64,000 nucleotides of DNA from Burkholderiales bacterium (GTDB lineage Bacteria; Pseudomonadota; Gammaproteobacteria; Burkholderiales; SG8-39): positions 5,510-69,509 of the forward strand of contig JBBRAI010000002.1 of assembly GCA_038206915.1 (NCBI GenBank). The letters run 5' to 3'. A program made the translations under genes and the position numbers. Shown piece after piece: positions 35,103-61,301 of the stretch. The notes beneath the pieces are model-generated. The model ran no database searches. It had not been told where the DNA came from and saw only the letters and a program-made list of their open reading frames with translations. Numbering within the stretch: the stretch's first letter is position 1; each line of letters begins with the position of its first letter.

Positions 35103-35197
35103 GATTTTTTCTCCTCCTTTGTGGTTGCTGCGCTATGGTGTAATTGCTGCATGCGGAACCAGCGGAACCAGCGAGGTTGACAGCATCCCGCTACGCA

Positions 35198-35222
35198 ACT
35201 ACGATGATATATCAGTCGTAGT
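35198..35222. promoter_or_regulatory. operator-like palindrome ACTACGA-TGATATATCA-G-TCGTAGT in the TRAP/PhyH divergent region
   Basis: Read directly. The core TGATATATCA is at 35205-35214. A second half-site, caacATATCAc, is at 35228-35238. Confidence 0.55.
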
Positions 35223-35292
35223 CACGCAACATATCACCCGCGATTCTTTCATGCAAGCCGGTGGTGCTGGTCCCGTATAAGAGGAGCAAACA

Positions 35293-36126
35293 ATGTCGAA
35301 GTCGCTGTCCGTCGAAGCCGTGCGGCATTACCAGAGTAATGGCTATCATTTCCCGGTGCCGGTGCTCAGCCGGGAGGAGGCGGCGCATTATCGCCGCTGC
35401 CTGGAGCAGCACGAGGCCAAAACCGGCAAACCGCTGCAGGGCAATTGGCGGCACAAGACGCACCTTATCTTTACCTGGGCGGACGAGCTCGCGCACCATC
35501 CGAAGATTCTCGACGCCGTGGAGGATGTGATCGGCCCGGATATTCTCTGCTGGACCACAAATTTCTTCATTAAGGAAGCGAACAACCCCGGCTTTGTCTC
35601 TTGGCATCAGGACTCGACCTACTGGGGCCTCGATCCGGACGAAGTAATCACTGCATGGGTTGCCTTTACAGACGTGACGCCCGAAAACGGCTACATGCAG
35701 TTCATCCCCGGCAGCCACAAGATCGACCAGTTGCCGCACGTCGATACGTTTCACAAGGACAACCTGCTGTCTCGCGGGCAGGAGATTGCCGTTGAAGTGG
35801 ATAGGTCTAAAGCTGTCGGAATCCCGTTGCGCGCTGGGGAAATGTCGCTGCACCACATCAAGTTGGTGCACGGCTCCGAGGCAAACCGCAGCAACGACAG
35901 GCGCATCGGCCTCGCGATCCGCTACATTCCGACATATGTGCGCCAGACCAAGATTCGCGACTCGGCGATGCTGGTGCGCGGCACCGATAAGTATCGCCAT
36001 TTCGACTACGAACCGCGGCCCCGCGCCGACTTGGACGATGCGGCGCAGGCTGCACATGCCGATGCAGTGGCGCGCCAGGTAAAGGCGCTGTACCAAGGCA
36101 CCAACAAGCAGGAATTTCGCGCCTGA
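35293..36126 (+). CDS. phytanoyl-CoA dioxygenase (PhyH) family Fe(II)/2-oxoglutarate dioxygenase, copy 1
   Basis: The 277-aa ORF follows a GAGGAG RBS. It has the WHQDSTYW (H-x-D) motif, the distal His in LVHGSEAN, and RIGLAIRY. Confidence 0.8.
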   Translation: MSKSLSVEAVRHYQSNGYHFPVPVLSREEAAHYRRCLEQHEAKTGKPLQGNWRHKTHLIFTWADELAHHPKILDAVEDVIGPDILCWTTNFFIKEANNPGFVSWHQDSTYWGLDPDEVITAWVAFTDVTPENGYMQFIPGSHKIDQLPHVDTFHKDNLLSRGQEIAVEVDRSKAVGIPLRAGEMSLHHIKLVHGSEANRSNDRRIGLAIRYIPTYVRQTKIRDSAMLVRGTDKYRHFDYEPRPRADLDDAAQAAHADAVARQVKALYQGTNKQEFRA

Positions 36127-36199
36127 GTGTGCGCTCCGCACTGGCGCCTGCGGCGTCCGGGCGGCCGGCTACCCCGCTAATTTATCCGAAGGAGTCACC

Positions 36200-37063
36200 G
36201 TGGCTGAAGAACGCAAGAAACTGACGGTGCCCGATCTGAAGGAAGCGAAGAAATCCGGCCGTAAGCTTGCGATGGCCTCGATTCCGGACTACCCATCGGC
36301 AGTCTGGGCCGAGCGCGCCGGGCTGGATATCCTCGGCATCGGCGATAGTCTGGGCATGGTGAGCTATGGCTTCTCCAATACGCTGCCGGTGACGGTGGAC
36401 ATGATGATCCAGCATTGCCAGGCGGTGCGCCGTGGCGCGCCCAACACGTTCAATCTGGTGGCGATGCCGTACGGCAGCTATCCCAACCCGGACGTCGCCG
36501 TGACCAACGCGCTGCGTTTCATGAAGGAGGGCGACGTGGACTGCGTCAAGATCCAGGGCGGGCGCGACAAATTTCCCATCCTGAAGGCGATCGCCGACGC
36601 CGGCGTGCCGTTGATGAGTCACGTCGGCATGTGCCCGCATTTCGTGCACCAGTACGGCGGCTTCAAGCTGCAGGGCAAGACAGCGGATGAGGCGTTGAAA
36701 ATCATTGATGACGCCGTCGCGATCCAGGAAGCCGGCTGCATCGGTTTCGAAATCGAGGCGGTGCCGGCGCCGGTCGCGTGCGCGGTGGACGCAGCGGTAG
36801 ATATCTTCACCTTCGGCATCGGCGCCGGCAGCGCCAGCTGCGGTCAGCTGCTGCTCGCGTTCGATCTTCTGGGCGTGTTCGATCAGTTCAAGCCGAAATT
36901 CACCAAGCGCTATGCCAACATTTCGCAAATCGCCGTGGATGCCCTCAAGCAATACGCCGCCGAAGTGCGCAGCGGGCAGTTTCCGGACGCGGAACACAGC
37001 TACACAATGAAGCCGGAGGAGATCGCACGGTTGGAACAGGTCACCGGCCGGAAGCTGCAATAG
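36200..37063 (+). CDS. 3-methyl-2-oxobutanoate hydroxymethyltransferase (PanB) family protein, copy 1
   Basis: It has a GTG start after a GAAGGAG RBS. PanB motifs are present: IGDSLGMV, RRGAPN, VKIQGG, GHVGMCPH and FEIEAVP. The usual GIGAG..DGQIL reads GIGAGSASCGQLL here. Confidence 0.8.
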   Translation: MAEERKKLTVPDLKEAKKSGRKLAMASIPDYPSAVWAERAGLDILGIGDSLGMVSYGFSNTLPVTVDMMIQHCQAVRRGAPNTFNLVAMPYGSYPNPDVAVTNALRFMKEGDVDCVKIQGGRDKFPILKAIADAGVPLMSHVGMCPHFVHQYGGFKLQGKTADEALKIIDDAVAIQEAGCIGFEIEAVPAPVACAVDAAVDIFTFGIGAGSASCGQLLLAFDLLGVFDQFKPKFTKRYANISQIAVDALKQYAAEVRSGQFPDAEHSYTMKPEEIARLEQVTGRKLQ

Positions 37064-37090
37064 AAAACGGCGCGGGATCCGCGCCGTTTG
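37064..37090. terminator. bidirectional rho-independent terminator between the convergent PanB-like and SBP genes
   Basis: There is a perfect 11-bp stem, aaacggcgcgg/ccgcgccgttt, with loop gat. A/T tracts lie on both sides. Confidence 0.7.
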
Positions 37091-37109
37091 AGTCACCAGG
37101 CCAGGGAGA

Positions 37110-38420
37110 TCAGCCGTAGTAGCGTTTGGCGCGCTTTTCAGCTTCGGCCGCCGCTTCTTTCGCGGTCTTTTGCCCAATGCAGGCCGACGCAAACATGTCG
37201 ACCACGATCCAGTCGGCCATGCATGCCGCGGACGCATAACCCAGGCTGCCGGCATAGCTGTGCGGCTGCATGCGGGCGACAACATGCTTGAACGGCAGGT
37301 ATTTCGGGTCGTCGTTCCAGAATTTGTTGTCGTCGTAGGCCTTGAGCGGGTGGCTGACGTAGCCGAGCGACGCAGCCTGCCAGGGCTCGTACTGCTCGCG
37401 TTCCCACATGAAGCGCAGATACTCCTTCGCCGCATTCGGATACTTGCTGTACTTGAACAAGAACGCCTGCGACAGCAGATGAAGCTCGGTCGGCCTGCCG
37501 ATCGGCCCGACGATCATGGGCGCGTGGTTCATGTCGGCCGCCACCGCCTGCTTCGCCGGGTCGGTCGAAGTCTTCCCTGCGTAATAGATCGAGATGCCGT
37601 TCGAGGTGAGGCTGATCTTGCCTTCAAGGAAGGCGTTGTTGTTGGATACGCCGCTCCACCCGCCGGTGCCCTCGATGAAGGTCTTGGAAAGCTGCTGCAG
37701 ATACTCGATCGCTTTGATGGTTTCCGGGCTGTTGATCGCGACCTGATTCTTTTCGTCCACCATTTTGCCGCCGAAGCCCCAGAGGATGTTGTGCATCCAG
37801 GTTTCGGAATCACCGGTTGCATGTGACAAGGCGAAACCGGGCGGGTGACCGTTCTTTTGCAGCGCCTGACACAGCTTGAGATAGTCTTCAAAGTTAGTCG
37901 GAAATTTGTCGAATCCCGCCTCTTTCACCCAGGACACGCGGTAATTAAGCAAGGCTCCCGAGGCACCCAGCGGCAAGCCGATCCAGCGCCCGTTTTTGGT
38001 CGTGCCATAGACGCGCGCCGTCGGAAACCAGCCGCCGTATTTCTTGCCCAGGTACTCGGCGAGGTCGGTCAGATCGACCAGCTTATCCGGATAGAGATGC
38101 GGATCGTCGAGCCAGCCGACGATAATGTCGGGTCCCGCGCCGACGTTTGCGGCAACCGCCGCCTTGGGTCGCACATCTTCCCAGTTCTCGTTGTCCGTGC
38201 GCACCGGAATGCCGTATTTTTCGCTGAACTTCTTCGTGTTGGCCAACCACATATCCTCGTCAGGCTGCACGAATCGCTTCCAGCGCAGCACGCGTAGCTT
38301 GGCGTCTTTCTCCGGCTTGAAGCTGGTTTGCGCCTGCGCTTTCTTGACCCAGAACATCGGGCCCATCGCGGCCATGGCACCCATGCCGCCGACGATTCTC
38401 CGTCTAGTTTGGTTTGTCAT
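37110..38420 (-). CDS. ABC transporter substrate-binding protein (extracellular solute-binding family 1, CUT1 sugar-type; Tat-like signal)
   Basis: The 436-aa ORF follows an AAAGGAGG RBS. The N-terminus is MTNQTRRRIVGGMGAMAAMGPMFWVKKAQA. Confidence 0.8.
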   Translation of the reverse strand: MTNQTRRRIVGGMGAMAAMGPMFWVKKAQAQTSFKPEKDAKLRVLRWKRFVQPDEDMWLANTKKFSEKYGIPVRTDNENWEDVRPKAAVAANVGAGPDIIVGWLDDPHLYPDKLVDLTDLAEYLGKKYGGWFPTARVYGTTKNGRWIGLPLGASGALLNYRVSWVKEAGFDKFPTNFEDYLKLCQALQKNGHPPGFALSHATGDSETWMHNILWGFGGKMVDEKNQVAINSPETIKAIEYLQQLSKTFIEGTGGWSGVSNNNAFLEGKISLTSNGISIYYAGKTSTDPAKQAVAADMNHAPMIVGPIGRPTELHLLSQAFLFKYSKYPNAAKEYLRFMWEREQYEPWQAASLGYVSHPLKAYDDNKFWNDDPKYLPFKHVVARMQPHSYAGSLGYASAACMADWIVVDMFASACIGQKTAKEAAAEAEKRAKRYYG

Positions 38421-38447
38421 AACTACCTCCTTTGGTTGAACAGCGGG

Positions 38448-39326
38448 CTACCTGGCGACTTTGCTCATCTCAAAAAACCGCTTTTGCGAAGCGGTCTGGT
38501 TTTCGTAGATCGATCCCTGATTGAGTGCCGGTGGCAACGGCATGCGCGCCGGACAATCGACAAGGCGCGGAACGATGGTTTCTTCGCCGCAAAGCAGGCG
38601 CTCTTTGAAATCATCGTAGTCGGGGATTCCAAGCAATGGAAACGCGTCTGCCGCGCTAACCTCATACAGCAGAAGTCCGCGCGACCGGAGCGAAGTATTC
38701 TGCGCCGATCCATGCACTGTGCGCACGTGATGGAATGAGCACGATCCGGCCGCCCCGATGCAGGGAACGGCATCGGCGAAACGCAGGCCTGCGGCCTCGA
38801 AGTCCATGGCGCCGCAGAAGCGGCCATCGGTGCCGTGGTGGTCATAAGTTGGCCCTTTATGCGTGCCTGGAACGATATAGAGCGCGCCGTTCTCGACGGT
38901 GGTGTCGTCCAGCATTACGCCTACCGCAAGCAGATCGTCGTTGGTATGCGGATAAAACGCCCAGTCCTGGTGCCATTCGACCGGCGAACCGAAACCGGGC
39001 GCCTTAAGATTCAGCTTGGATCCGTGCAGGCGCACGCTCGCGCCGAGCAGATCGCGCAGGATTCCAAGCAGCTTGGGCGAGCGGGCGAATTCCGCAAATA
39101 TCGGATTCACCAGGTGCGGCGACTTGATGCGGCGTACGCGGGGTTCCGTGCTGCTATGGCCCGGTTCAAGGTCATACACCTTGTCGTGGGTCTTGACGGC
39201 GCGTGAACGTTCGACAAGCTCCGCGAGCACGCTCCTCATCTGCGTCCGGATGGCATCGTCAAGCACGCCTTCGACGACGATCGCCCCGACGTCGTTGTAT
39301 TCCTCGATTTGAGCCCTGGTCAGCAT
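38448..39326 (-). CDS. PhyH family Fe(II)/2-oxoglutarate dioxygenase, copy 2
   Basis: The 292-aa ORF follows a GGAGGA RBS. It has WHQDWAFYPH (H-x-D) and the distal His in RTVHGSAQN. Confidence 0.8.
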   Translation of the reverse strand: MLTRAQIEEYNDVGAIVVEGVLDDAIRTQMRSVLAELVERSRAVKTHDKVYDLEPGHSSTEPRVRRIKSPHLVNPIFAEFARSPKLLGILRDLLGASVRLHGSKLNLKAPGFGSPVEWHQDWAFYPHTNDDLLAVGVMLDDTTVENGALYIVPGTHKGPTYDHHGTDGRFCGAMDFEAAGLRFADAVPCIGAAGSCSFHHVRTVHGSAQNTSLRSRGLLLYEVSAADAFPLLGIPDYDDFKERLLCGEETIVPRLVDCPARMPLPPALNQGSIYENQTASQKRFFEMSKVAR

Positions 39327-39381
39327 ATTCTCAATTCCTCCGATGACGTTTGTCCAAAAGCGTACAGTGGCGCGTTCCGGC

Positions 39382-40284
39382 CTACTCCTTCACCGCGCCG
39401 GTCATGCCGGCAACGTAGTGTTCGACAAAAAACGAGTAAAGCAGGGCTACCGGCAGCGAGCCGAACAGGGCGCCCGCCATGAGCGAGCCCCAGTGGTAGA
39501 CGTCGCCGTCGACCAGCTCGGTGAGAACGCCCACCGGAATCGTCTTGTTCTCCGACGAGGAGATGAAGGTCAGCGCATAGATGAATTCGTTCCATGACAG
39601 GGTGAATGCGAATATCCCTGCCGAGATCAGTCCGGGGACCGCCAGCGGCAGCACGATTTTCGTCAGGATCTGCATGCGGGTCGCGCCGTCGACCAGCGCG
39701 CACTCCTCGAGTTCGAACGGAATCGACTTGAAATACCCCATCAACAGCCAGGTGCAGAACGGAATCAGAAAGGTCGGATAGGTCAGGATCAGCGCCCAGC
39801 GCGAATCAAACAGACCCAGTTTGTACACCATGGTCGCCAACGGAATGAAAAGAATCGAGGGCGGTACGAGGTAGGCGCCATAGATGCTCAGTCCAACCCA
39901 GCGGCTGCCTTTGAAGCGCAAACGCTCGATTGCGTAGGCGGCGAGCACGCTGGCAAAAAGGGAAATCACGGTGGCGGTTCCGGACACCAAAAAGGTGTTC
40001 CATAGCCAGTCCGGGTACGAGGTCTCGAACAGCAGCTTCTTGATATTGTGCAGCGTGGGATTGAATACCCAGAACGGGTTGTTCTTTGCGTAGTCGTAGA
40101 TATCGTCGTTGCTCTTGAAAGTAGTGATCACCATCCAGTAGAAAGGAAAAAGCAGGACGAACGTGAAAACCATCAGCGGCAGGTAGACAGTCACGAATTT
40201 GCGTTGCCGCGTCAACAGGAAATCCATTCCACCTTCGGAATGCAGCTTTTCCTCGGACCCCGGGGTAGTGAGCGCTTGTGTCAT
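39382..40284 (-). CDS. carbohydrate-type ABC transporter permease (MalG-like)
   Basis: The 300-aa polytopic protein has the EAA loop ECALVDGATRMQILTKIVLPLAVPG. Confidence 0.85.
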   Translation of the reverse strand: MTQALTTPGSEEKLHSEGGMDFLLTRQRKFVTVYLPLMVFTFVLLFPFYWMVITTFKSNDDIYDYAKNNPFWVFNPTLHNIKKLLFETSYPDWLWNTFLVSGTATVISLFASVLAAYAIERLRFKGSRWVGLSIYGAYLVPPSILFIPLATMVYKLGLFDSRWALILTYPTFLIPFCTWLLMGYFKSIPFELEECALVDGATRMQILTKIVLPLAVPGLISAGIFAFTLSWNEFIYALTFISSSENKTIPVGVLTELVDGDVYHWGSLMAGALFGSLPVALLYSFFVEHYVAGMTGAVKE

Positions 40285-40288
40285 CGGT

Positions 40289-41224
40289 TCAATCCTTGCT
40301 TCCCTGCTGCCAGGCGCGACGTTGCAGCCCGAAAAAGCTGATCAGAATAGCGGCGACCAGGAACGGGACCATCGCTATCGCGATTGCCGCGCCCTCCGCC
40401 ATCTGTCCGCCCGGAATGGCGCGCTGAAACGACAATGTCGCCATCAGGTGCGTGGCGTTCACCGGGCCGCCGCGCGTGATTGCGTAGACGAGTTGAAAAT
40501 CGGTGAAAGTGAACAGCACCGAGAACGTCATCACGATCGCGATGATCGGTGTAAGCAAGGGGTAGGTAATGTGCCGGAATCGCTGCCATTGCGTCGCGCC
40601 GTCTATGGTCGCCGCTTCGTAGAGCGACGGAGAAATCGTCTGCAAGCCGGCAAGAAGGGAAATCGCAACGAACGGGATGCCGCGCCAAATATTGGCGACG
40701 ACGACGGAAATGCGCGCATTCCAGGGGGTGCCGAGAAAATCGATGTAGTGATCGATCAGCCCGGCCTTAATCAGCACCCAGGAGATGATCGAGAACTGGC
40801 TGTCGTACATCCACCAGAACGCGATCGCGGAAAGTGTCGTGGGCACGATCCAGGGCAGCAGCAGCACGGCGCGCATGAATGACTTGAACGCAATGTTTTG
40901 GTTGAGCAGCAACGCGAGTACCAGGCCAAGAAAAAACTTGAACACGCTCGCGACGGCAGTGTAGCCGACGGTGTTGTACACTGACAGCCAGAATACGCTG
41001 TCCTGAAACAGCGACTCGTAGTTTGCCAGTCCGATAAAAACACCCGGCCGCCCGATCTTGGTGTCGGTCAGCCCGAGCCAAAAGCCGAGGCCGAGGGGAT
41101 AGGTCAGGAACACCAGCAGAATCGCCGCTGCCGGCAGCATAAATATGAACCCCAGCGCGTCGGCGCTGTTATTGATGCGGTCCAGCAGGCTCTTGCGCGA
41201 TGACCTTGCCAAGGGCTTCTCCAA
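40289..41224 (-). CDS. carbohydrate-type ABC transporter permease (MalF-like)
   Basis: The 311-aa polytopic protein has the EAA loop EAATIDGATQWQRFRHITYPLLTP. Confidence 0.85.
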   Translation of the reverse strand: MEKPLARSSRKSLLDRINNSADALGFIFMLPAAAILLVFLTYPLGLGFWLGLTDTKIGRPGVFIGLANYESLFQDSVFWLSVYNTVGYTAVASVFKFFLGLVLALLLNQNIAFKSFMRAVLLLPWIVPTTLSAIAFWWMYDSQFSIISWVLIKAGLIDHYIDFLGTPWNARISVVVANIWRGIPFVAISLLAGLQTISPSLYEAATIDGATQWQRFRHITYPLLTPIIAIVMTFSVLFTFTDFQLVYAITRGGPVNATHLMATLSFQRAIPGGQMAEGAAIAIAMVPFLVAAILISFFGLQRRAWQQGSKD

Positions 41225-41330
41225 ATTTGGATCGAGCTAAGTCGGACAAAGTGCGGGCGTCAACCATTACAGAGCGCGCGCTGGATATCGACCGATGCGA
41301 GGTGGCCAGTTTAGACCTTATTCACCCATA

Positions 41331-43262: not shown

Positions 43263-43331
43263 GGGTTCTTGCTCCTGGACTAACGCCGATTTGGCGGTGT
43301 GGCTCTTCTACGTGCGGTTCGTAATGTGGCG

Positions 43332-44252: not shown

Positions 44253-44280
44253 GGTGCGCTCCTTTGTTACAGCTAAAACG

Positions 44281-51867: not shown

Positions 51868-52053
51868 GTAGCCGCCGCGCCGGAGCGGCGCCCAGGCCGG
51901 CGCCGTCGAGGTGTTCTGGCACGCGTTTGTCGATGATCACGGATTCCGGCTTCATATGCTCCCCGTTAAAATTCGCCAAACTACCGCCATATGCCGTTCC
52001 GACCAGTGCGGAACGTATCCGGGGCCGGAGAGGGTCCGGGGCGGCATTCTTGG

Positions 52054-53627: not shown

Positions 53628-53647
53628 ATTGGACTCCTTGTCGTGTG

Positions 53648-53672
53648 ACTGATATGCGTGCAGTATATCAGT
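53648..53672. promoter_or_regulatory. inverted repeat ACTGATAT-N9-ATATCAGT in the PanB2/Fe-S-protein divergent region
   Basis: Read directly. The arms are 8 bp and perfect. The repeat lies 21 nt upstream of the PanB2 start. Confidence 0.55.
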
Positions 53673-53762
53673 TGTGTTTTCAGCAGTGTAATGCGCACCG
53701 GGCGACAAGTGTGCCACCTTACAGGTGTCCTGGCGCGTGCCGCTGCAGGCGCGGAGCAGGCA

Positions 53763-54480: not shown

Positions 54481-54527
54481 GGTTTGATTCAGATCAAATC
54501 GGCCGCTCATATATTACTGATATATTA
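54481..54527 (+). promoter_or_regulatory. 47-nt conserved regulatory block upstream of the corrinoid-protein operon
   Basis: It reads ggTTTGATTCAGATCAAAtcggccgCTCATATATTACTGATATatta. The palindrome is TTTGAT-N4-ATCAAA, followed by an ACTGATAT half-site. It ends 50 nt before the ATG at 54577. Confidence 0.6.
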
Positions 54528-54576
54528 CATGCAATCCGACTTGAACCGCGGGCTCAACCGAGAGGGAGACAGGCAG

Positions 54577-55212
54577 ATGGCCGACATACTCGAGACAATC
54601 AAGGAGATGTGCATCAAGGGCAAGCGCGTGGAAACGCTGGCGGAGGTGAAGCGCGCGCTTGCCGACGGCATCGACGCCAAGACGGTGATGACGCAGAGTC
54701 TGATACCGGCGATGGCGGTGGTGGGCGAAAAGTATTCCTCGGGCGAGTTCTTTTTGCCGCAGATGATGCTCGGTGCGCGCGCGATGAGCGAAACGATGGC
54801 ATTCCTCAAGCCCCACTTGGTGCAGGGAAGTTACGAGAAGAAGGGCAAGGCGGTGGTCGGGACGGCGCAGGGCGACTTTCACGATATCGGCAAGAACATC
54901 GTCAAGATCATGCTCGAGGGCGGCGGCTATGAAGTTGTCGACCTCGGCGTGGATGTGAGTCCGCAGGCGTTTGTCGACGCGGTGCGGAAAGAGGCACCGC
55001 GCTTTGTCCTGGTCAGCGCGCTGATCACGCTCACCATGGACAGCATGCGCAAAACCGTCAAGGCGCTGGAAGGCGCCGGGGTGCGCGGCCAGGTCGTGGT
55101 GGGGATCGGCGGCGCGCCGGTGACGCAGAAGTTCGCCGACGAAATCGGCGCCGACTTCTACAGTCAGGACGCGTACCAGTGCGTCGAGAAGTGCAACCAG
55201 TTGCTGCATTGA
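54577..55212 (+). CDS. corrinoid (cobalamin-binding) protein, MtaC/MtbC/MtvC-like
   Basis: The 211-aa protein starts MADILETIKEMCIKG, with a GGGAG RBS. It has a helical cap and a B12 Rossmann domain with GDFHDIGKN, SALITLT and IGGAP. Confidence 0.9.
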   Translation: MADILETIKEMCIKGKRVETLAEVKRALADGIDAKTVMTQSLIPAMAVVGEKYSSGEFFLPQMMLGARAMSETMAFLKPHLVQGSYEKKGKAVVGTAQGDFHDIGKNIVKIMLEGGGYEVVDLGVDVSPQAFVDAVRKEAPRFVLVSALITLTMDSMRKTVKALEGAGVRGQVVVGIGGAPVTQKFADEIGADFYSQDAYQCVEKCNQLLH

Positions 55213-55235
55213 GCGGCGCCCTAGGAGCGAGCGAA

Positions 55236-56312
55236 ATGACACCCAAAGAAAGAGTGATGACGGCATTGCGCCGCGGCCAGCCCGACCAGGTGCCGTGGGT
55301 CGAAAACGAAGTCGAGGAGATGTTGCAGATCCAGATCATGGGCGGGCGCACCGACTACACGCCGGGCGAACTGTGCCGCGCCCTGGGCATGGACGGCTTC
55401 GGCTATCACTTTCCTACTGGCGGCGCGGGTTCGGCCAGCCAGGCGCTGCAGACCTCCAAGTCGATCAAGGAGGCCTTCTACTTCCCGAAAAAGATCACTT
55501 TCGACTTCGTGCCACCGTGGATCGCCGATATGGGCGTGGAGCCGAATGGGCGCACCTTCGTCAAAAAGGGTCTGCTGGTCGATCGCGATTCGCTCAAGCT
55601 GTTCGACGAGTTCCTGCCCGATCCGAACCATCCGGCGCGCTACGAGCAGATCGCGAAGTGGATCGAGCAGTACCGCGAGGACTACGCCGTGTACGCGCGA
55701 ATCCGCCTGGGTACCGCGAGCACCATCGAAAGCATGGGGCTGGACGTGTTCTCGCTCATGCTCTACGACGATCCGGATCTGGTGAAGGAGATCCATCGGC
55801 GCTTTTCGGAATGGACAGTGAAGGTGCTCGAGAACCTGAACAAGCTCGACCTCGATTTCTACTGGGCCAACGACGACCACGCCGACACCAAGATGCCCTG
55901 GGTCAACATGGAGATGTACGAGGAGTTTTTCTTCCCTTACCAGAAGATGGTCGCCGACGCGATGAAGAAGCCCTGGGCGTTCCATAGCGACGGCAACCTG
56001 TTTCCGATACTCCCCGGGCTGGTGAAGCTCGGCATGAACGCGATCCACCCGATTCAGCCGGCGGCGATGGATATCGCCAAGATGAAGGCGGACTACGGCT
56101 CCAAGGTCTGCCTGATCGGCAACATCGATCTGGATTACACCCTGACGCTGGGTACGCCCGAAGAGGTCGACAAGGAGGTCAAGGAGCGCATCGCGGTCGC
56201 CGGCAAGGGCGGCGGCTATATCATCAGCAGCGCCAACAGCCTTACCGACTATTGCAAGATCGACAACGTCTGGGCCATGTCCAAGGCGCTGAAGAAATAC
56301 GGCAAGTACTGA
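55236..56312 (+). CDS. uroporphyrinogen decarboxylase (URO-D) family methyltransferase (MtaA/MtvB-like)
   Basis: The 358-aa protein starts MTPKERVMTALRRGQPDQVPWVE. A URO-D-type TIM barrel pattern runs through ...GGGYIISSANSL. It lies immediately after the corrinoid protein. Confidence 0.75.
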   Translation: MTPKERVMTALRRGQPDQVPWVENEVEEMLQIQIMGGRTDYTPGELCRALGMDGFGYHFPTGGAGSASQALQTSKSIKEAFYFPKKITFDFVPPWIADMGVEPNGRTFVKKGLLVDRDSLKLFDEFLPDPNHPARYEQIAKWIEQYREDYAVYARIRLGTASTIESMGLDVFSLMLYDDPDLVKEIHRRFSEWTVKVLENLNKLDLDFYWANDDHADTKMPWVNMEMYEEFFFPYQKMVADAMKKPWAFHSDGNLFPILPGLVKLGMNAIHPIQPAAMDIAKMKADYGSKVCLIGNIDLDYTLTLGTPEEVDKEVKERIAVAGKGGGYIISSANSLTDYCKIDNVWAMSKALKKYGKY

Positions 56313-57109
56313 TGCTGATCGTCGCCGAACGTATTAATGCCTCGCGCAAAGCGATCCGCGCCGCGCTGGAAAAGCTCGACGCCGACGCGATAGTGAATGA
56401 GGTGCGCATACAGGACGCTGCCGGGGCGAATTACATCGACCTGAACGGCGGCACCTTCCCCGGACGCGAAACCGAATTGCTTTGCTGGCTGGTGGACATC
56501 GCGCAGCAGGCGACGCAGCTGCCGCTGTGTCTGGACAGCCCGGACCCGGCGGCGCTGGAAGCGGCGCTGAAGCGGCTGAAAGGGCCGCGGCCGATGATCA
56601 ATTCGATCAACCTCGAACCGGAGCGCTTCGAGCGCACGCTGCCGCTGGCGCGTGAGCATGGCGCCAAGCTGATCGCGCTGGCGCAGGGCGAGGACGTGCC
56701 CGCGGCGAGCGCGGCGGAGAAGGCCGAGCTTGCCGGCCGCCTGATCGAGCAGCTGGTGCGCGCCGGAATGCCGCTCGATGACATCTACGTCGATCCGCTG
56801 GTATTTCCGGTGGGGACCGATTCGGCATCGGGGCTGGCCACGGTAACCGCAATGCGCGAGATCATGGCGCGCTATCCCGGGGTGCACACCATCTGCGGCC
56901 TGACAAACGTATCGCACGGCCTGCCGGCACGCAAACTGATCAATCGCACGTTCCTCGCCGGTGCGATTGCCAACGGTATGGACGCGGCCATCATCGATCC
57001 GACCGATACCCAGCTCATGGCGACGATGTTCGCAGCAGAAGCGGTTTTCGGGCGCGACGAATACTGCGTCAACCTGATCGAAGCGTTCCAGGCGGGCAAA
57101 CTGGGCTGA
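56312..57109 (+). CDS. pterin-binding methyltransferase (methyl-corrinoid:tetrahydrofolate methyltransferase; MeTr/CmuB/MtvA-like)
   Basis: The 265-aa protein starts MLIVAERINASRK with a TGATG overlap. It has YIDLNGG and the conserved ICGLTNVSHGLPARKLINRTFLAGAIANGMDAAIIDP, a dihydropteroate-synthase-like fold signature. Confidence 0.8.
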   Translation: MLIVAERINASRKAIRAALEKLDADAIVNEVRIQDAAGANYIDLNGGTFPGRETELLCWLVDIAQQATQLPLCLDSPDPAALEAALKRLKGPRPMINSINLEPERFERTLPLAREHGAKLIALAQGEDVPAASAAEKAELAGRLIEQLVRAGMPLDDIYVDPLVFPVGTDSASGLATVTAMREIMARYPGVHTICGLTNVSHGLPARKLINRTFLAGAIANGMDAAIIDPTDTQLMATMFAAEAVFGRDEYCVNLIEAFQAGKLG

Positions 57110-57155
57110 GCCGATCCGGCAGTCGCGTCGTTTCCCAAGTACCGCACGATGAACC

Positions 57156-59051
57156 ATGCGCAATCCTGACTCCCATTCGTCGAAGGTTGGCGTCACCTTC
57201 CTGCCGGATTCGCGTCGCGTCGAGGTCGCCGCGGGTGAGCGCCTGCTGTTTGGTGCATGGAAAGTGGGCGTCGGCATCAAGTCCGTTTGCGGCGGTCGCG
57301 GCAAGTGCGCCAGCTGCCTCGTGATTGTGGAAAGCGCCGCCGCCGATGCGCTTTCGCCGGTCAGCGCGGAAGAGCAGGCGCTGCTGCCGCGCGTCGAAGC
57401 CGGGCCAACCTACCGTCTCGCCTGCATGACCGAAGTGCGCGGCGAAGTATGCGTCTCGGTCCCGCCGGAGAGCCAGGCGCTGAAAAGTCCACCGCGAAAA
57501 CCCTACACCGTGACCAGCGTTGCGCTGGCTCCCGCAGTCAAGCGCGTCGCATTCGACGTGGAAGATGCCTACGCGGAGCCCCTGCGGCCGCTGTCCGAGC
57601 GCATCGAGACAGCGCTGTGGGGCTCGCGCGGCGGCAAACTGCCCGTTGCCGTTCTGGCAGAGTTGTCGCGCGAACCTGATTTCGACTCCAGCGCGCGACT
57701 CAGCGCGACGCTCGAGGGCAAGCGTTTGGTCCAGCTGTGCTGCGGCGAACCCGGCCCGATCTACGGCCTGGCCGTGGACATCGGCACCACCTCAATAGTC
57801 GTGTTTCTATGTGACTTGACGCGCGGCGATATCGTCGGCGTGCGCACCTCGGGCAACCCCCAGGCGGCCTTCGGCGAGGACGTCATTTCGCGCATGGCGC
57901 ATGTCCAGGAGGACGTGTCGAATCTTGGCGTGCTGCACAAGCTGCTGATCGACGACATCAACCGCATGGTCGATGACGCGGCGCGCGAAGCGGGCGTGGC
58001 GCTCAAGGACATCGTCGATGCGGTGGTGGTGGGCAACCCGACCATGCAGCACGTGCTGCTCGGCATCAATCCGGTGCCGCTCGGGCGCGGGCCGTACGTT
58101 CCGGTGATGTCCGCGGGCGTGGAAGTCGAGGCGCGCAGCCTCGGACTGACCATCGTGCCGGGGGCGCCGGTGTTCGTGCTGCCCATGCCCGCCGGCTATA
58201 TCGGCGGCGACACGCTATCGGCCGTGCTCACGCGCGGACCGGAGTTCTACCGCGGCAATAATCTGCTGGTGGATATCGGCACCAACGGCGAAGTGGTGCT
58301 CGCCAAGGACGGCGTACTCACTGCCACGTCCTGCGCTACGGGACCGGTATACGAGGGCGCGCACATCGCCTGCGGCGTGCGCGCGGCGCCCGGGGCGATC
58401 GAGCGCGTCTGGATTGAAGCCGGTGGCGCGATCCGCTGGGCTGCGATACCGCCGGATGGCGAGCGCGACCGGCGTCCGGTCGGGCTGTGCGGCTCGGGCG
58501 TGATCTCGACTGTGACCGCGCTGGTCGGCGCCGGGCTGGTGGGAATCGACGGTGCGTTCGCGCAGCTCGGCACGCATCCGCGGTTGCGCCGCAGCGCGAT
58601 CAACGGACAGATGGAGGTGGTACTGGTCCCGGCGATGGGCAGCAGGACCGGACGCGATATCGTGTTCACGCAACAGGACGTGCGCAGCGTGCAGTTGGGC
58701 AAGGCTGCGCTGCGCGCCGGCATCGAAATCCTGCTGCGCGAGCAGGATGTGAAGGAGCTCGACCACATTTTCCTGGCCGGAACTTTCGGCAACCATCTTG
58801 AACCGCGCGACATCGTCGCGATCGGCCTGGTCCCGCCGGTGCCGGTGGAGCGCATCGAATCGATTGGCAACGCGGCCGGCGACGGCGCGCGCATGGCCTT
58901 GTTTAACCGGCGCGACCGGCGCCGCGCGCAGCGGCTCGCGCAGACCATGCGCGTGGTCGAACTGTCGAACCGCGCCGATTTTCAGGACATGTTCGTCGCC
59001 TGCACCGAACTCTCGGACGCGCCCGCGCCGACGCTGGAACAGGAGGACTAG
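57156..59051 (+). CDS. RACo-type reductive activator of corrinoid enzymes (2Fe-2S ferredoxin domain + ASKHA ATPase, DUF4445-like)
   Basis: The 631-aa protein has an N-terminal plant-type ferredoxin domain (CGGRGKCASC...LAC). The ASKHA phosphate motifs are GLAVDIGTTSIV and LLVDIGTNGEVVL. The C-terminal part contains LCGSG and QQDVRSVQLGKAALRAG. Confidence 0.85.
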   Translation: MRNPDSHSSKVGVTFLPDSRRVEVAAGERLLFGAWKVGVGIKSVCGGRGKCASCLVIVESAAADALSPVSAEEQALLPRVEAGPTYRLACMTEVRGEVCVSVPPESQALKSPPRKPYTVTSVALAPAVKRVAFDVEDAYAEPLRPLSERIETALWGSRGGKLPVAVLAELSREPDFDSSARLSATLEGKRLVQLCCGEPGPIYGLAVDIGTTSIVVFLCDLTRGDIVGVRTSGNPQAAFGEDVISRMAHVQEDVSNLGVLHKLLIDDINRMVDDAAREAGVALKDIVDAVVVGNPTMQHVLLGINPVPLGRGPYVPVMSAGVEVEARSLGLTIVPGAPVFVLPMPAGYIGGDTLSAVLTRGPEFYRGNNLLVDIGTNGEVVLAKDGVLTATSCATGPVYEGAHIACGVRAAPGAIERVWIEAGGAIRWAAIPPDGERDRRPVGLCGSGVISTVTALVGAGLVGIDGAFAQLGTHPRLRRSAINGQMEVVLVPAMGSRTGRDIVFTQQDVRSVQLGKAALRAGIEILLREQDVKELDHIFLAGTFGNHLEPRDIVAIGLVPPVPVERIESIGNAAGDGARMALFNRRDRRRAQRLAQTMRVVELSNRADFQDMFVACTELSDAPAPTLEQED

Positions 59052-59054
59052 CCC

Positions 59055-60521
59055 ATGCTCGCTCTCAGACGCTGGTCGGTGCGGCACGCGGGACTGGTCG
59101 AGCGCACGTATGGTTGGCTCAGGTCGCTGTTGCGCGCCTGTGATCCGTTGATTCGGCGACTGGGCTACGCGCGCGTCGAAAAAGCAGTGCTGCCGATCGA
59201 GCGCCGGCTGAAGGGGCTCATGTTCGACTGTCGCATGTGCGGCGTGTGCCTGCTCTCGCTCAATGGCATGTCCTGCCCGATGAACTGCCCCAAGTCGGTG
59301 CGCAACGGGCCCTGCGGCGGCGTGCGTCCGGACGGCGGCTGCGAAGTCGATCCGCAGATGCAGTGCGTCTGGGTGGAAGGATGGCGCGGCACGCAGAAAA
59401 TGTCGGTCGGCTCGATTTCCGAATTGCCCAACGCGCCGGCAAATGCGCGTTTTGCCGGAAGTTCGAGTTGGTTACGTCTGGCGCGCGGCGAGCACGAGCC
59501 GTCTCCCATTAGCGGCGCGCCGACGACGTCCTCCGGCAGTCACCTGGAGAGTCTGCTCGCAAGCGGCAGCTTCGCGGTTACCGCGGAATTTTCGCCGCCG
59601 GATTCGGCCGATCCCGGCGAGGTCTTCGCGCAGCTGGAGTATTTCCGCGGCCACGTCGACGCCATCAATGTTACCGACGGCAGCGGGGCGAATTGCCACA
59701 TGTCCAGTCTCGGCGTCTCGGCGCTTTTGCTGCAGGCCGGCTGCGAACCGGTGATGCAAATCACCTGCCGCGACCGCAACCGCATCGCCATCCAGGGCGA
59801 CATCCTCGGCGCCGCCGCGCTGGGCATACGCAACCTGCTCTGTCTCACCGGCGACAGCACGCTGGTGGGAGACCATCCGGACGCCAAGCCCGTGTGCGAC
59901 TTGGATAGCATGTCGCTGCTGCAGACCGCTCGCATCATGCGCGACGAGAAGCGCTTTCTTTCCGGGCGCAAGCTGAGCGCCGTTCCCTTCATGTTCCTCG
60001 GCGGCGCCGACAATCCGTTCGCGCCGCCGTTCGACATGCGTCCGATGCGGCTCACGCGCAAGATAGCGGCCGGCGCGCAGTTCGTGCAGACGCAGTATTG
60101 CTTCGATCTGGATCTGCTCGGAGCCTATATGGACCGGGTGCGCGATGAAGGGCTGCATGAGCGCTGCCATATCATTATCGGCGTCGGACCGATCGCCTCG
60201 GCGAAGACGGCGCGCTGGCTGCGCAGCAAGGTGCCCGGCGTGCATATTCCAGACGCAGTGGTGGCGCGCCTGGAGGGCGCGGCCGACGCGCGTGCCGAGG
60301 GCAGGAAGATCTGCGTCGAAATGATCCAGGCGATAAGGCAAATTCCAGGCATCGCCGGGGTGCACATCATGGCGCCGCGTCAGGATCAATTCATTCCGGA
60401 ACTGGTGCGCGCTTCGGGCGTGCTGGCGGGGCGGCCGCCGCCTTACGCCGGCGCTGCGCAGCCGCGTCCCTTGCCGGCCATGGCGGGTGGATCTGGCGGC
60501 GATGGGCGCCCGGCTTCTTAA
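59055..60521 (+). CDS. MetV-MetF fusion: Cys-rich MTHFR-associated (MetV-like) domain + methylenetetrahydrofolate reductase domain
   Basis: The 488-aa protein has an N-terminal CRMCGVCLLSLNGMSCPMNCPKSVRNGPCGG motif. The MetF barrel follows (FAVTAEFSPPD, INVTDGSGA, QITCRDRN, LCLTGD). Confidence 0.8.
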   Translation: MLALRRWSVRHAGLVERTYGWLRSLLRACDPLIRRLGYARVEKAVLPIERRLKGLMFDCRMCGVCLLSLNGMSCPMNCPKSVRNGPCGGVRPDGGCEVDPQMQCVWVEGWRGTQKMSVGSISELPNAPANARFAGSSSWLRLARGEHEPSPISGAPTTSSGSHLESLLASGSFAVTAEFSPPDSADPGEVFAQLEYFRGHVDAINVTDGSGANCHMSSLGVSALLLQAGCEPVMQITCRDRNRIAIQGDILGAAALGIRNLLCLTGDSTLVGDHPDAKPVCDLDSMSLLQTARIMRDEKRFLSGRKLSAVPFMFLGGADNPFAPPFDMRPMRLTRKIAAGAQFVQTQYCFDLDLLGAYMDRVRDEGLHERCHIIIGVGPIASAKTARWLRSKVPGVHIPDAVVARLEGAADARAEGRKICVEMIQAIRQIPGIAGVHIMAPRQDQFIPELVRASGVLAGRPPPYAGAAQPRPLPAMAGGSGGDGRPAS

Positions 60522-60533
60522 GGAGGAGTTCTC

Positions 60534-61301
60534 ATGAATATTTCAACATGGCGCGCCGACCCGGTAGCGACGAACGCCCGGCCGACCGTCATCATCGCCT
60601 GCCGCGTAATGCAAGAGCATCTGCAGCAGCTCCTGCCCGCTACCACGGCCGTGACCTATCTTGAAATCACGCTGCACAACACGCCGAAGAAACTTGCCGC
60701 CGCGCTGCAGCACGAAATCGATCTGGTCGAGCAGCCGAGCAATATTCTGGTCGGCTACGGACTGTGCGGCAACGGCCTGCTCGGCGTGAAGTCCGGGCCG
60801 CATACCCTGATCATTCCGCGCACGCACGACTGCGTCGCCATCTTCCTGGGTTCGCAACAGCGCTACGTACAGCGCTTCTTCGCGAATCCGAACACCTACT
60901 ACCTGACCCGCGGCTGGCTGGAGGCGAAGGACGAACCGCTGCAGGACTACCTCGACTACGTGCGCGACTATGACGAGGAGACCGCCGACTATCTGGTCGA
61001 AATGAAATACCGCCACTATCGCAAGCTGTGCATGGTCGGATTTTCGCAGGAGGAACTGGAGGAATGCCGGCCGATGGCCATGCGCGTGGCGGAGTTCTGC
61101 GGCAAGCGCTGGAACATGGAATACGAGGAGATCGTGGGCTCGACCTCCATGCTCCAAAATCTGCTCAAGCTGCCAGCGCAGCTCGAATCGGGCAACAACG
61201 ACGAATTCGTCGTGGTCCGGCCGGGCGGGGAGATCGAGGTCGATATGTTCCTGCGCGACGGGGAGTCGGCGCCGGCACAAACTGCGGCCCGGGATGGCTA
61301 G
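60534..61301 (+). CDS. DUF1638 domain-containing protein
   Basis: The 255-aa protein has ILVGYGLCGNGLLG...LIIPRTHDCVAIFLGSQQRY...YYLTRGWLE, the pattern I associate with DUF1638. That family is usually found next to corrinoid methyltransferase genes. Confidence 0.7.
   Translation: MNISTWRADPVATNARPTVIIACRVMQEHLQQLLPATTAVTYLEITLHNTPKKLAAALQHEIDLVEQPSNILVGYGLCGNGLLGVKSGPHTLIIPRTHDCVAIFLGSQQRYVQRFFANPNTYYLTRGWLEAKDEPLQDYLDYVRDYDEETADYLVEMKYRHYRKLCMVGFSQEELEECRPMAMRVAEFCGKRWNMEYEEIVGSTSMLQNLLKLPAQLESGNNDEFVVVRPGGEIEVDMFLRDGESAPAQTAARDG

Follow-up and report, generated by a model that had tools for sequence, protein, structure and literature searches.

A modular cluster of remote URO-D-type corrinoid fusions, oxygenases and altered PanB-like enzymes in uncultured Burkholderiales: a candidate aerobic methyl-transfer regulon

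How can an aerobe keep corrinoid methyl transfer, which proceeds through Co(I), next to four O2-dependent oxygenases, and what would such a combination be used for? This question is raised by a gene cluster in the 64-kb stretch of Burkholderiales DNA analysed here (the window, ~63% GC). An earlier note on this DNA regarded the coexistence of Co(I) and O2 chemistry as a puzzle; however, aerobes provide precedents in the CmuAB and the MtgBCD/split-MetH systems (PMC12478193, PMC5764234), and the core operon of the cluster is therefore of an already known kind. Whereas the corrinoid demethylation chain is known in aerobes, what is new is a family of fusion proteins, in which a methyltransferase domain resembling uroporphyrinogen decarboxylase (URO-D) precedes a corrinoid domain, and a strict pairing between hydroxylases and PanB-like enzymes. 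We somewhat favour the view that the cluster is a single catabolic regulon, probably GntR-controlled, of O2-respiring uncultured Burkholderiales, which would pass the methyl groups of imported methylated compounds, perhaps of betaine type, via corrinoids to the tetrahydrofolate (THF) pool.

Genes were called from the GC bias at third codon positions (GC3) of long open reading frames (ORFs), and their products were scanned against Pfam and NCBIfam. This yielded 24 genes in an unbroken block at 35293-61301, where the earlier note had counted about 25, and each domain that it had named was found. The signature motifs of the methyl-transfer chain components (DxHxxG, His boxes, HxD triads) are intact on inspection. 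The features of the block, together with the transporter divergent from its left end, are as follows.

32207-35102, minus strand: TRAP (tripartite ATP-independent periplasmic) transporter, with DctM at 32207-33523 (286 bits), DctQ at 33520-34074 (85 bits) and DctP at 34071-35102 (174 bits), by Pfam
35205-35214: operator-like palindrome TGATATATCA in the divergent TRAP/PhyH1 promoter region
35293-36126, plus strand: PhyH1 (Pfam PhyH 117 bits; HQD at residue 105)
36200-37063, plus strand: PanB1 (Pantoate_transf 292 bits; TIGR00222 256 bits)
37110-38420, minus strand: CUT1 substrate-binding protein (SBP) (SBP_bac_8 99 bits; Tat-like signal peptide)
38448-39326, minus strand: PhyH2 (Pfam PhyH 114.5 bits; HQD at residue 119)
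39382-40284 and 40289-41224, minus strand: two CUT1 permeases (BPD_transp_1)
41331-43262, minus strand: Fusion 1, 643 aa (B12-binding_2 and B12-binding; URO-D 21.5 bits; DMHDIG at 525)
43332-44252, minus strand: PhyH3 (Pfam PhyH 82.8 bits; HYD at residue 131)
44281-48734, minus strand: LivFGMHK, by Liv-type ATP-binding cassette (ABC) Pfam families, with a LivK-like SBP at 47556-48734
48816-48825: palindrome TGATATATCA, 82 nt upstream of livK
48915-50960, minus strand: Fusion 2, 681 aa (URO-D 25.3 bits; DFHDIG at 569)
50995-51759, minus strand: FA_hydroxylase (PF04116 35 bits; four His boxes)
51804-51813: palindrome TGATATATCA, 45 nt upstream of the FA_hydroxylase-Fusion 2 unit
52054-52749, minus strand: GntR/FCD regulator (Pfam GntR and FCD)
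52746-53717, minus strand: PanB2 (Pantoate_transf 316 bits; TIGR00222 284 bits)
53763-54476, plus strand: Cys-rich Fe-S gene (faint QueG/MMACHC scores; no Pfam domain)
54518-54527: one-mismatch palindrome TGATATATTA, 47 nt upstream of the corrinoid-protein start
54574-55212, plus strand: free corrinoid protein CorP (B12-binding_2 and B12-binding; TIGR02370 178 bits; DFHDIG)
55179-56312, plus strand: stand-alone URO-D methyltransferase, 377 aa (Pfam URO-D 79 bits)
56252-57109, plus strand: pterin methyltransferase (Pterin_bind 72 bits; NF005719 284 bits, cutoff 259)
57156-59051, plus strand: RACo/RamA-type activator (N-terminal 2Fe-2S domain; Fer2, Raco_middle and RACo_C_ter)
59055-60521, plus strand: MetV-MetF fusion (Cys-rich DUF5981 and MTHFR)
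60534-61301, plus strand: DUF1638 protein (Pfam 125 bits)

The two fusion proteins are 52% identical to each other by blastp, and each ends in a B12-binding cap and a Rossmann domain with a DxHxxG motif. In Fusion 1 these follow a URO-D-like methyltransferase domain of residues 1-400; the start codon of Fusion 2 is uncertain, its first 47 aa being an N-terminal extension absent from Fusion 1. By sequence the methyltransferase domain is hardly placed. PF01208 gives Fusion 1 21.5 bits (cutoff 23.9) and Fusion 2 25.3 bits with no individually significant stretch, TIGR01463 (mtaA_cmuA) matches neither fusion and reaches 56.8 bits with the free methyltransferase (cutoff 235.4), and a search of PDB sequences with a hidden Markov model (HMM) profile built from 12 homologues of the domain gave no meaningful match. 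The fold was therefore compared instead. An AlphaFold2 (AF2) model of residues 1-400 (pLDDT 78.8, pTM 0.82) returned UROD or MtaA (4ay7) as all of the top 22 Foldseek matches in the PDB (E 1e-8 to 2e-6, TM 0.47-0.64), followed by unrelated TIM barrels that were ~100-fold or more weaker. On the evidence of this predicted model, the N-terminal domain is a URO-D-type (beta/alpha)8 barrel of a very remote branch. Thus, of the three URO-D/MtaA-like domains claimed earlier, two of them fused to B12 domains, the free one holds by Pfam, and those in the fusions hold by predicted fold, with Pfam scores that are only marginal.

The fusion family has an invariant motif, H287-x-D289-G-E-N, with an equally invariant Glu ~20 residues on (E308). 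The H-x-C...C zinc site of MtaA type is present neither in the fusion domains nor in the free methyltransferase, which has HSD there. This site is not universal in the URO-D superfamily, as CdmB and MtvB are without it (PMC13222342), and CdmB, a chloromethane methyltransferase I, is the closest solved relative of the free methyltransferase (35 bits). A scan of 1.84 billion cluster representatives (50% identity) with the fusion domain found 145 at E <= 1e-30 and 613 at E <= 1e-10, in which the domain occurs both as stand-alone (~400 aa) and as fused (~640 aa) proteins. Close homologues of the fusions, more than 1000 at >64% identity, come nearly all from metagenome-assembled genomes (MAGs), and the named ones are Burkholderiales/Betaproteobacteria. 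Relatives at 41-54% identity are found in 'delta-proteobacterial', Hyphomicrobiaceae and Thermoleophilia MAGs, and those at ~33% in Dehalococcoidia. The 80 best genomic loci included no cultured host. Neither did a set of 72,556 plasmids, against which tblastn of Fusion 1 gave matches of the B12 domain only and none over the full length. The family is apparently confined to MAGs.

The remaining components of the chain are assembled in the core operon, where the pterin methyltransferase, the Fer2-containing RACo activator, DUF1638 and MTHFR sit together with the corrinoid protein. The mechanical ORF of CorP opens at 54346 and is 76 codons too long; homology runs from the Met at 54574. PF02607 and PF02310 match both fusions and CorP (motifs DMHDIG, DFHDIG and DFHDIG, respectively). 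Their corrinoid domains score 167-180 bits against TIGR02370 (cutoff 215) and 193-216 bits against the MtgC models (cutoff 370), and are thus members of the superfamily rather than equivalogs. The earlier calls of a free corrinoid protein, a pterin methyltransferase, a RACo activator, MetV-MetF and DUF1638 were all borne out by Pfam or NCBIfam. The logic that the earlier note had read from them, in which a methyltransferase I, a corrinoid protein, a pterin methyltransferase, an ATP-dependent activator and MetF act together, has all its components present. The DUF1638 family has been tied genetically to B12-dependent methyl transfer in Phaeobacter (PMC5764234).

The Cys-rich Fe-S gene, which is probably the first gene of the core operon, is real, as had been claimed: an identical 237-aa protein (P0391) is called on a 147-kb contig. 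The label 'QueG-like' given to it fared less well, since it scores just 19 bits against TIGR00276 (QueG, cutoff 200) and 15 bits against MMACHC (cutoff 27). It belongs to a family of >3000 homologues of ~227 aa, without a Pfam domain and annotated as 'hypothetical' or 'ferredoxin', which also occurs outside corrinoid clusters in unrelated contexts (L089; related loci carry codes from L002 to L089). Its C-terminus carries two ferredoxin-type Cys motifs, CxxCxxxxCxxxCP and CxxxxCxxxxxCP. The AF2 model is of low confidence (pLDDT 66), with the N-terminal 100 residues confident, and Foldseek places human MMACHC first (E 9.5e-4, TM 0.41-0.46), then QueG (E 0.12), nitroreductases and a reductive dehalogenase. 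Common to these matches is a B12-binding nitroreductase-like fold, so that a cobalamin-processing or -reducing role is plausible if the model is correct.

Do these genes belong together? All window proteins were compared by tblastn with 80 related loci, and database gene calls on six long contigs were added; our own clustering of ORFs was unreliable in this high-GC DNA, in which antisense ORFs abound, and was set aside in favour of these. The co-conservation in related genomes that a gene-neighbourhood search was expected to reveal was seen in both sources. At least 13 independent MAG loci of Burkholderiales or Hyphomicrobiaceae contain these gene sets, with the recurring orders PanB2-GntR-Fusion-FA_hydroxylase-transporter and CorP-UroD-(PterinMT-RACo / MetVF). 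The 'supercluster' of the earlier note is better described as a mosaic of modules, since PhyH1-PanB1-TRAP stands alone in L087. Four modules can be distinguished.

Module A: PanB2-GntR-[fusion, FA_hydroxylase]-transporter, the transporter being Liv-type in the window and L088 and, in most genomes, a TRAP system of a second kind
Module B: PhyH-fusion-transporter, the transporter being CUT1 in the window, L003, L004 and L006 and TRAP-like elsewhere
Module C: PhyH1-PanB1 divergent from DctPQM, with TRAP orthologues beside it in L002, L003, L004, L007, L010, L012, L022 and L033
Module D: (Fe-S)-CorP-UroD-PterinMT-RACo-MetVF-DUF1638, one variant having another pterin methyltransferase as well as an amidohydrolase

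L003, L004 and L088 share large parts of the window layout, and L088 has the entire right half including the Fe-S gene, the ParE gene and the TonB receptor gene. Module A is often followed by a FAD oxidoreductase gene and often preceded by a gene for a BHMT/MtgE-type homocysteine methyltransferase; the latter (419 bits, cutoff 338) adjoins in seven related loci. In L088 (16497-18120), ParE is followed by an 85-aa ORF and then by this S-methyl_trans gene, before the TonB receptor. Both the 85-aa ORF and the S-methyl_trans gene are gone from the window, which suggests that a homocysteine-methylating subunit has been deleted here. In L087 (888-10858), the order PhyH1-PanB1-GntR-TRAP-FAD-PhyH lies between phaC/Rieske and adh_short-DSBA-SPOR-argS-priA-hemE, and module C has there a GntR, a FAD enzyme and a second PhyH of its own. 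The window cluster is on the opposite side of hemE-EVE-zapA as compared to L087, and the modules have therefore shifted relative to a common backbone. A gene of the PanB1 family is also found in an unrelated context in L086. Deltaproteobacterial loci contain the fusion, pterin methyltransferase, DUF1638, RACo and TRAP (its SBP 52-55% identical to that of the window), and neither an oxygenase gene nor a PanB-like gene was found in these fusion loci. One of them encodes a LarA-type (nickel-pincer) 2-hydroxyacid racemase between DUF1638 and RACo (L026:12629-13957).

A 10-bp palindrome, TGATATATCA, further ties the modules to each other. It is present in three perfect copies and one copy with a single mismatch in the 64-kb window, all four in intergenic regions of the cluster, upstream of four transcription units, and nowhere else, against 0.42 matches expected by chance. 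With up to one mismatch, 14 further loci have it at the orthologous positions between genes, one of them a Hyphomicrobiaceae (alphaproteobacterial) MAG. It lies upstream of FA_hydroxylase in 10 other loci, between PhyH1 and DctP in L003, L004 and L007, upstream of CorP in L013, L017 and L039, and at the livK-type site in L003, L004 and L088. Within the window, a block of ~85 nt that includes the palindrome is duplicated at 48790-48880 and 51790-51875. The two copies of this block also share an identical 18-nt stretch, ATCAAGCTGCGCGTTCCG, ~40 nt from the palindrome. Modules A, C and D, and B by read-through, are very probably co-regulated as one regulon, which bears indirectly on the co-expression whose absence the earlier note had named as a refutation. 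The GT-N-AC symmetry of the palindrome is one that we take to suit operators of GntR/FadR type, and the GntR protein encoded at 52054-52749 is a candidate for its binding.

The three PhyH proteins match PF05721, the family of PhyH Fe(II)/2-oxoglutarate dioxygenases (117, 114.5 and 82.8 bits), and of the HxD...H facial triad they have HQD, HQD and HYD, respectively, plus a downstream His. FA_hydroxylase matches PF04116 with 35 bits (cutoff 31) and has the His boxes HKYVMH, HTRQHH, HYCCH and HHTAHH. The prediction of three PhyH dioxygenases and a di-iron membrane hydroxylase was therefore right with respect to Pfam families, HxD motifs and four His boxes. None of the three PhyH proteins reached the cutoff of a named PhyH equivalog in NCBIfam, EctD scoring at most 67 bits against 336.5. 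The closest solved relative of PhyH1 is 6zyk, an uncharacterised 'monooxygenase' (182 bits, 45% identity); no paper citing 6ZYK/6ZYL was found in a literature check, hence no functional lead for PhyH1. Those of PhyH2 are EvdO2, the Leu hydroxylase GriE and EctD, and those of PhyH3 are EctD and GriE.

What the PanB-like enzymes do is less obvious than their family, which is part of the ICL/PEP-mutase superfamily. Both paralogs exceed the TIGR00222 cutoff of 207.55 (256 and 283.8 bits), and the earlier assignment of two PanB paralogs is thus correct at the family level; the canonical reaction is doubtful, since D84 and E114 are replaced. As compared to E. coli PanB (1m3u), PanB1 has D84A, E114Q, Y25P and V179E, and PanB2 has D84C, E114Q, Y25P and V179E, with D45, S46, K112, H136 and E181 unchanged in both. 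D84 and E114 are invariant in the four solved PanB proteins that were aligned, and we presume that they are part of the Mg2+ site and that D45, D84, K112, E114 and E181 serve as metal ligands or base. In a set of 120 database relatives of PanB1, all 120 have Pro at position 25 and Glu at position 179, 118 have Gln at position 114, and at position 84 there is Ala in 114 and Ser in five. The substitutions are present in every PanB1 and PanB2 orthologue of the related loci, and the PanB proteins of two Dehalococcoidia loci are canonical. This conservation argues that PanB1 and PanB2 represent two neofunctionalised clades that annotation pipelines name PanB.

The PanB-like genes follow the hydroxylase genes. 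Among the 38 loci with a fusion gene, over which pairings and fusion neighbours were counted, the FA_hydroxylase gene adjoins the fusion gene in 14; FA_hydroxylase and PanB2 are both present in 13, both absent from 24 and discordant in one. PhyH1 and PanB1 are both present in seven and both absent from 31, with no discordant locus, and PhyH2 has no comparable tie to any PanB-like gene in the same 38 loci. The PanB-like clades thus pair with hydroxylases and not with methyltransferases, which goes against the earlier idea that they are a sink for methylene-THF; the flow would rather be the reverse. It is reasonable to speculate that the product of each hydroxylase is the substrate of its PanB-like partner, for example with a hydroxymethyl group freed by retro-aldol cleavage to THF. 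A comparable sequence of events is known from the 2-aminoisobutyrate route, in which a methyl group is hydroxylated and the hydroxymethyl group then released to THF, by entirely different enzyme families. A general role of the PanB-like enzymes as formaldehyde scavengers was dropped as the main idea because modules with PhyH2 only never hold a PanB-like gene.

All three importers named in the earlier note, CUT1- and Liv-type beside a divergent TRAP system, were found, although the gene map shows no ATPase for the CUT1 system within the cluster. The closest solved relatives of DctP are the lactate-binding protein 2zzv (251 bits) and keto-acid-binding TRAP SBPs, and the CUT1 SBP has only weak sugar-SBP relatives in the PDB. 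The LivK-like SBP is related to Leu/Ile/Val-binding proteins and to the group of 4ey3, 4eyg and 4eyk (E 2.5e-13), which are deposited merely as 'Twin-arginine translocation pathway signal' and which we take to be aromatic-acid binders. B12 uptake adjoins the cluster as well: a riboswitch lies directly 5' of a TonB receptor gene that abuts the corrinoid cluster, an arrangement that is the same in L088. The features of this right border are the following.

61322-61648, minus strand: ParE toxin gene
61731-61944, plus strand: cobalamin riboswitch (Rfam RF00174 93.8 bits, full length)
~61950 to the window end, plus strand: TonB-dependent receptor (Plug and TonB barrel domains)

No recognisable ParD antitoxin gene accompanies ParE. 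On the other side of the cluster, left of TRAP, there are housekeeping genes (hemE, EVE, zapA, 6S RNA, priA, argS, phaC and others). A genuine hemE (URO-D 447 bits) at 29536-30624 (minus strand), 1.6 kb left of TRAP, is the fourth gene of the URO-D family in the window; it is a housekeeping gene and syntenic with L087. The 6S/SsrS RNA gene at 31184-31364 (minus strand; Rfam 61.8 bits) is located between the EVE-domain gene and zapA. This housekeeping part also contains a second complete Liv-type ABC system at 16624-21505 (plus strand) and a Peripla_BP_2 (B12/siderophore-type) binding protein at 21522-22373 (minus strand).

The base composition of the cluster is not uniform. GC is 0.597 at 35103-53717 and 0.644 both in the core operon (54574-61301) and in the left flank; the earlier impression that the cluster is less GC-rich than its flanks thus applies to the catabolic half (59.7%) but not to the core operon (64.4%, equal to the left flank). 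A housekeeping stretch at 14-18 kb also has ~60% GC, and no tRNA or integrase genes were found at the cluster borders. The lower GC of the catabolic half alone is no sign of recent transfer, and a horizontally acquired low-GC island is poorly supported, given the flank-like GC of the core operon.

The earlier statement that this combination is not a described pathway stands: in the literature searched, we found no account of the fusion family, its coupling to PhyH/FA_hydroxylase, the altered PanB-like clades with their pairing, or the shared operator. The cluster does resemble three groups of known systems in part. Like CmuA of aerobic Methylobacterium and Hyphomicrobium, the fusions have an N-terminal methyltransferase I joined to a corrinoid domain (PMC13222342), so that the CmuA-like fusion logic noted earlier is confirmed at the level of domain architecture. 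As with CmuA/CmuB, there is a separate pterin methyl-corrinoid:THF methyltransferase, a dedicated MetF paralogue and an aerobic host (PMC13222342; see also PMC3621897). However, only this architecture is in common, the cluster proteins having no TIGR01463-level match; no folD or purU is found in the window, and the cluster adds oxygenases, PanB-like enzymes, RACo and DUF1638. Unlike those of CmuAB, the substrates are not a gas, given three importers with SBPs.

The core operon resembles in content the MtgBCD(E)/split methionine synthase genes of Ruegeria pomeroyi and Phaeobacter inhibens, likewise a corrinoid demethylation system of aerobes with a link to B12 uptake (PMC12478193, PMC5764234). 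Shared are a free corrinoid protein, a bidirectional pterin methyltransferase, an activator of Fer2 and RACo type, DUF1638 and a dedicated MTHFR. In R. pomeroyi, induction on betaines has been seen for MtgC, MtgD, a RamA-like protein, DUF1638 and MetF2, MtgC and MtgD are needed both for glycine-betaine demethylation and for methionine synthesis, and several substrate-specific methyltransferase I proteins have been proposed to work on one common core (PMC12478193), as we suggest for the cluster. In Phaeobacter, the RamA-like and DUF1638 genes are needed for B12-dependent methionine synthesis (PMC5764234). In contrast to the MttB-family (PF06253) methyltransferase I of these bacteria, that of the cluster is of URO-D fold, with two of the three fused to their own corrinoid domain, and no cluster protein matched PF06253 in the Pfam scan. 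Moreover, the genes are scattered there and form one island here, the MTHFR of the cluster is a MetV-MetF fusion, and Pfam detected no homocysteine-binding (S-methyl_trans) gene in the window.

The Odm, Vdm, Mtv, Mto and Cdm systems of anaerobes likewise consist of a URO-D methyltransferase I, a corrinoid protein, a methyltransferase II and a RACo activator, and the order CorP-UroD-PterinMT-RACo agrees with theirs (PMC13222342). They differ from the cluster in that its setting is oxic and its regulon includes four O2-dependent enzymes, and the relationship is remote: the free methyltransferase has 35 bits to CdmB, and the fusions are undetectable by sequence. No aromatic ring-cleavage or ring-hydroxylating genes were found in the window cluster or the conserved loci. 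With the PanB proteins of E. coli (1M3U) and M. tuberculosis (1OY0), PanB1 and PanB2 share the fold family and the above-cutoff HMM scores, but they differ by D84 to A/S or C, E114 to Q, Y25 to P/L and V179 to E, and by a hydroxylase-paired, catabolic context. The mlp clusters (Kountz and Balskus, PMC10418091) were rejected as a match, being an anoxic thiol/selenide system without DUF1638.

Taken together, these data are consistent with the following scheme for the catabolic regulon. The TRAP, CUT1 and Liv-type importers would take up soluble, carboxylate-bearing methylated substrates. The two fusions, and the free URO-D methyltransferase with CorP, would each move an activated methyl group to Co(I), one common pterin methyltransferase II would hand it to THF, and MetV-MetF would oxidise methyl-THF to methylene-THF. 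RACo, DUF1638 and possibly the MMACHC/QueG-like Fe-S protein may keep or restore Co(I) in the oxic cell, with B12 presumably provided by the riboswitch-controlled TonB receptor. PhyH2 and PhyH3 (with Fusion 1) and FA_hydroxylase (with Fusion 2) may act on the same skeletons, most likely stripping remaining methyl groups that are no longer good leaving groups, or hydroxylating the skeleton. Each PanB-like enzyme, tied to one hydroxylase, would most likely cleave the hydroxymethyl product of its partner by a retro-aldol reaction with C1 going to THF, and ketopantoate synthesis is unlikely. Module D would thus be the common core, modules A and B and the free URO-D methyltransferase substrate-specific front ends, and the oxygenases and PanB-like enzymes finishing steps suited to an oxic lifestyle, which the anaerobic relatives lack.

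Which substrates would enter this scheme? With low confidence, we propose quaternary-ammonium (betaine-type) compounds, and rate methyl ethers below them as an unlikely choice. A fusion of 76% identity occurs in the order GntR-Fusion-DHDPS-AcnX, with an enolase-superfamily gene and TRAP adjacent, and its AcnX is above cutoff for the cis-3-hydroxy-L-proline dehydratase equivalog (806 bits, cutoff 700). This context resembles (hydroxy)proline-betaine catabolism (see PMC3950512). BHMT/MtgE-type genes adjoin in related loci, and each fusion sits with two more oxidative enzymes, which would fit three N-methyl groups. Thioether donors (methionine and methylmercaptopropionate, MMPA) were dropped as main candidates, the thiol-type zinc motif being absent; methyl transfer from a methyl thioether to THF is also thermodynamically uphill. 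Homoserine betaine (the head group of diacylglyceryltrimethylhomoserine, DGTS), trigonelline/homarine and 4-O-methylglucuronate were considered, none with specific support.

Several points weigh against a betaine-fed catabolic regulon. The hydroxyproline context is found in only two of the 38 loci, and the enolase-superfamily gene there is best matched by sugar-acid dehydratases (galactonate dehydratase 216 bits). The lactate/keto-acid-like TRAP SBP and LarA point to small hydroxy or oxo acids, and the short-chain dehydrogenase/reductase (SDR) and galactonate-dehydratase-like enolase genes near fusions suggest sugar acids. In L087, module C is found with no corrinoid genes within 10 kb. Two metal-site residues are lost from the PanB-like enzymes, which makes even aldol/retro-aldol chemistry an assumption; the assignment of the GntR regulator to the palindrome is something we only infer, and the direction of methyl flow cannot be read from sequence. 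Finally, characterised URO-D methyltransferase I enzymes take methoxy-aromatics, halomethanes or methylthiols (PMC13222342), and the known quaternary-amine methyltransferases all belong to the MttB family (PMC13222342, PMC12478193), so that a betaine role is unprecedented for the URO-D fold.

With the same architecture, the substrates might instead be O-methyl ethers, either lignin-derived methoxylated aromatic acids or the O-methylated forms of sugars, sugar acids or hydroxy acids. The fusions and the free URO-D methyltransferase would then be Odm/Mtv/Mto-like O-demethylases working in an aerobe, with the oxygenases processing the demethylated skeletons. We hold this to be unlikely. In its favour, the Liv-type SBP matches 4ey3/4eyg/4eyk (E 2.5e-13), whose binding of aromatic acids is, as stated, our presumption. 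The relatives nearest to the CUT1 SBP and to PhyH2 (MalE3 and EvdO2) are sugar-related, enolase-superfamily, SDR and DHDPS (dihydrodipicolinate synthase) genes typical of sugar-acid catabolism are present in L018 and L083, and a lactate/keto-acid-like TRAP SBP and, in L026, LarA would agree with hydroxy acids. On the other hand, the AcnX hydroxyproline equivalog beside one fusion does not fit, aliphatic methyl ethers are poor donors to Co(I), and neither the cluster nor the conserved loci have the genes for aromatic rings referred to above. The enzymology cuts both ways: characterised non-thiol URO-D methyltransferase I enzymes all act on methoxy-aromatics or halomethanes, and the free methyltransferase is nearest to CdmB, which has been placed beside O-demethylases (PMC13222342), yet the distance of the fusion domain from MtaA and CdmB is too large for an HMM profile to bridge.

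Two other explanations question the regulon itself. The 26-kb island may consist of functionally independent neighbours, with PhyH1-PanB1-TRAP and perhaps the PhyH/ABC sets serving unrelated substrates. This would explain why module C is by itself in L087, at a different position in syntenic housekeeping DNA, why a PanB1-family gene has an unrelated context in L086, why transporters are swapped between genomes (TRAP for Liv, CUT1 for TRAP-like) and why the catabolic half is below the core operon in GC. We nevertheless judge it improbable, as the promoters of TRAP/PhyH1, FA_hydroxylase-Fusion 2, livK and, with one mismatch, the core operon have a palindrome in common that is conserved elsewhere, module C lies beside corrinoid modules in at least eight loci, and PanB2, which is homologous to PanB1, is a fixed part of the fusion module. 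Alternatively, the core operon may be biosynthetic, like a three-part methionine synthase, running from methylene-THF through methyl-THF and methyl-corrinoid to an acceptor, with the PanB-like enzymes using methylene-THF. In support of this, methionine synthesis in Phaeobacter and Ruegeria requires a corrinoid protein, a pterin methyltransferase, a RamA-like protein and DUF1638 (PMC5764234, PMC12478193), a BHMT/MtgE-type homocysteine methyltransferase adjoins in L088, L002 and others, and both PanB paralogs are above the TIGR00222 cutoff. However, the same chain is also catabolic in Ruegeria (PMC12478193), the window lacks the S-methyl_trans gene, the URO-D-type domains lack the H-x-C...C zinc motif for thiol acceptors, and D84 and E114 are missing from the PanB-like enzymes. 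Three dedicated importers and a GntR regulon of catabolic type suit uptake and degradation, and we consider a biosynthetic operon very improbable, the least credible of the explanations weighed here.

We therefore retain the catabolic regulon as the working explanation. In its most far-reaching form, the fusions, found in aerobic Betaproteobacteria of soil and freshwater, would be the first corrinoid-fused methyltransferases of URO-D fold to act on quaternary-ammonium compounds or on other organic acids that are soluble, complemented by a two-step release of C1 to THF by hydroxylase and PanB-like enzyme. It is doubtful that all of this holds jointly. If it does, the fusions would join the MttB family as a second solution of independent origin, the metal site of the PanB-like enzymes would be remodelled, possibly with a thiolate, and their reverse direction would be a natural 2-oxoacid and C1 assimilation. 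N-, O- and C-bound methyl groups of a substrate would then all be funnelled into the folate pool.

Thousands of 'PanB' annotations in metagenomes belong to clades without the two canonical active-site residues and are probably mis-annotated, and the conserved operator offers a direct experimental handle on the inducer, hence on the substrate. Corrinoid demethylation has long been seen as a speciality of anaerobes, with CmuAB and, since 2025, MtgBCD as the only aerobic cases, and this cluster points to a third aerobic system, with a different methyltransferase I family. The fusion family is common in uncultured Burkholderiales of soils, lakes and sludge. If its substrates are plant or algal betaines or methyl ethers, there would be an unrecognised B12-dependent turnover of methyl groups in oxic terrestrial and freshwater habitats, and an extra reason for the demand for B12 there.

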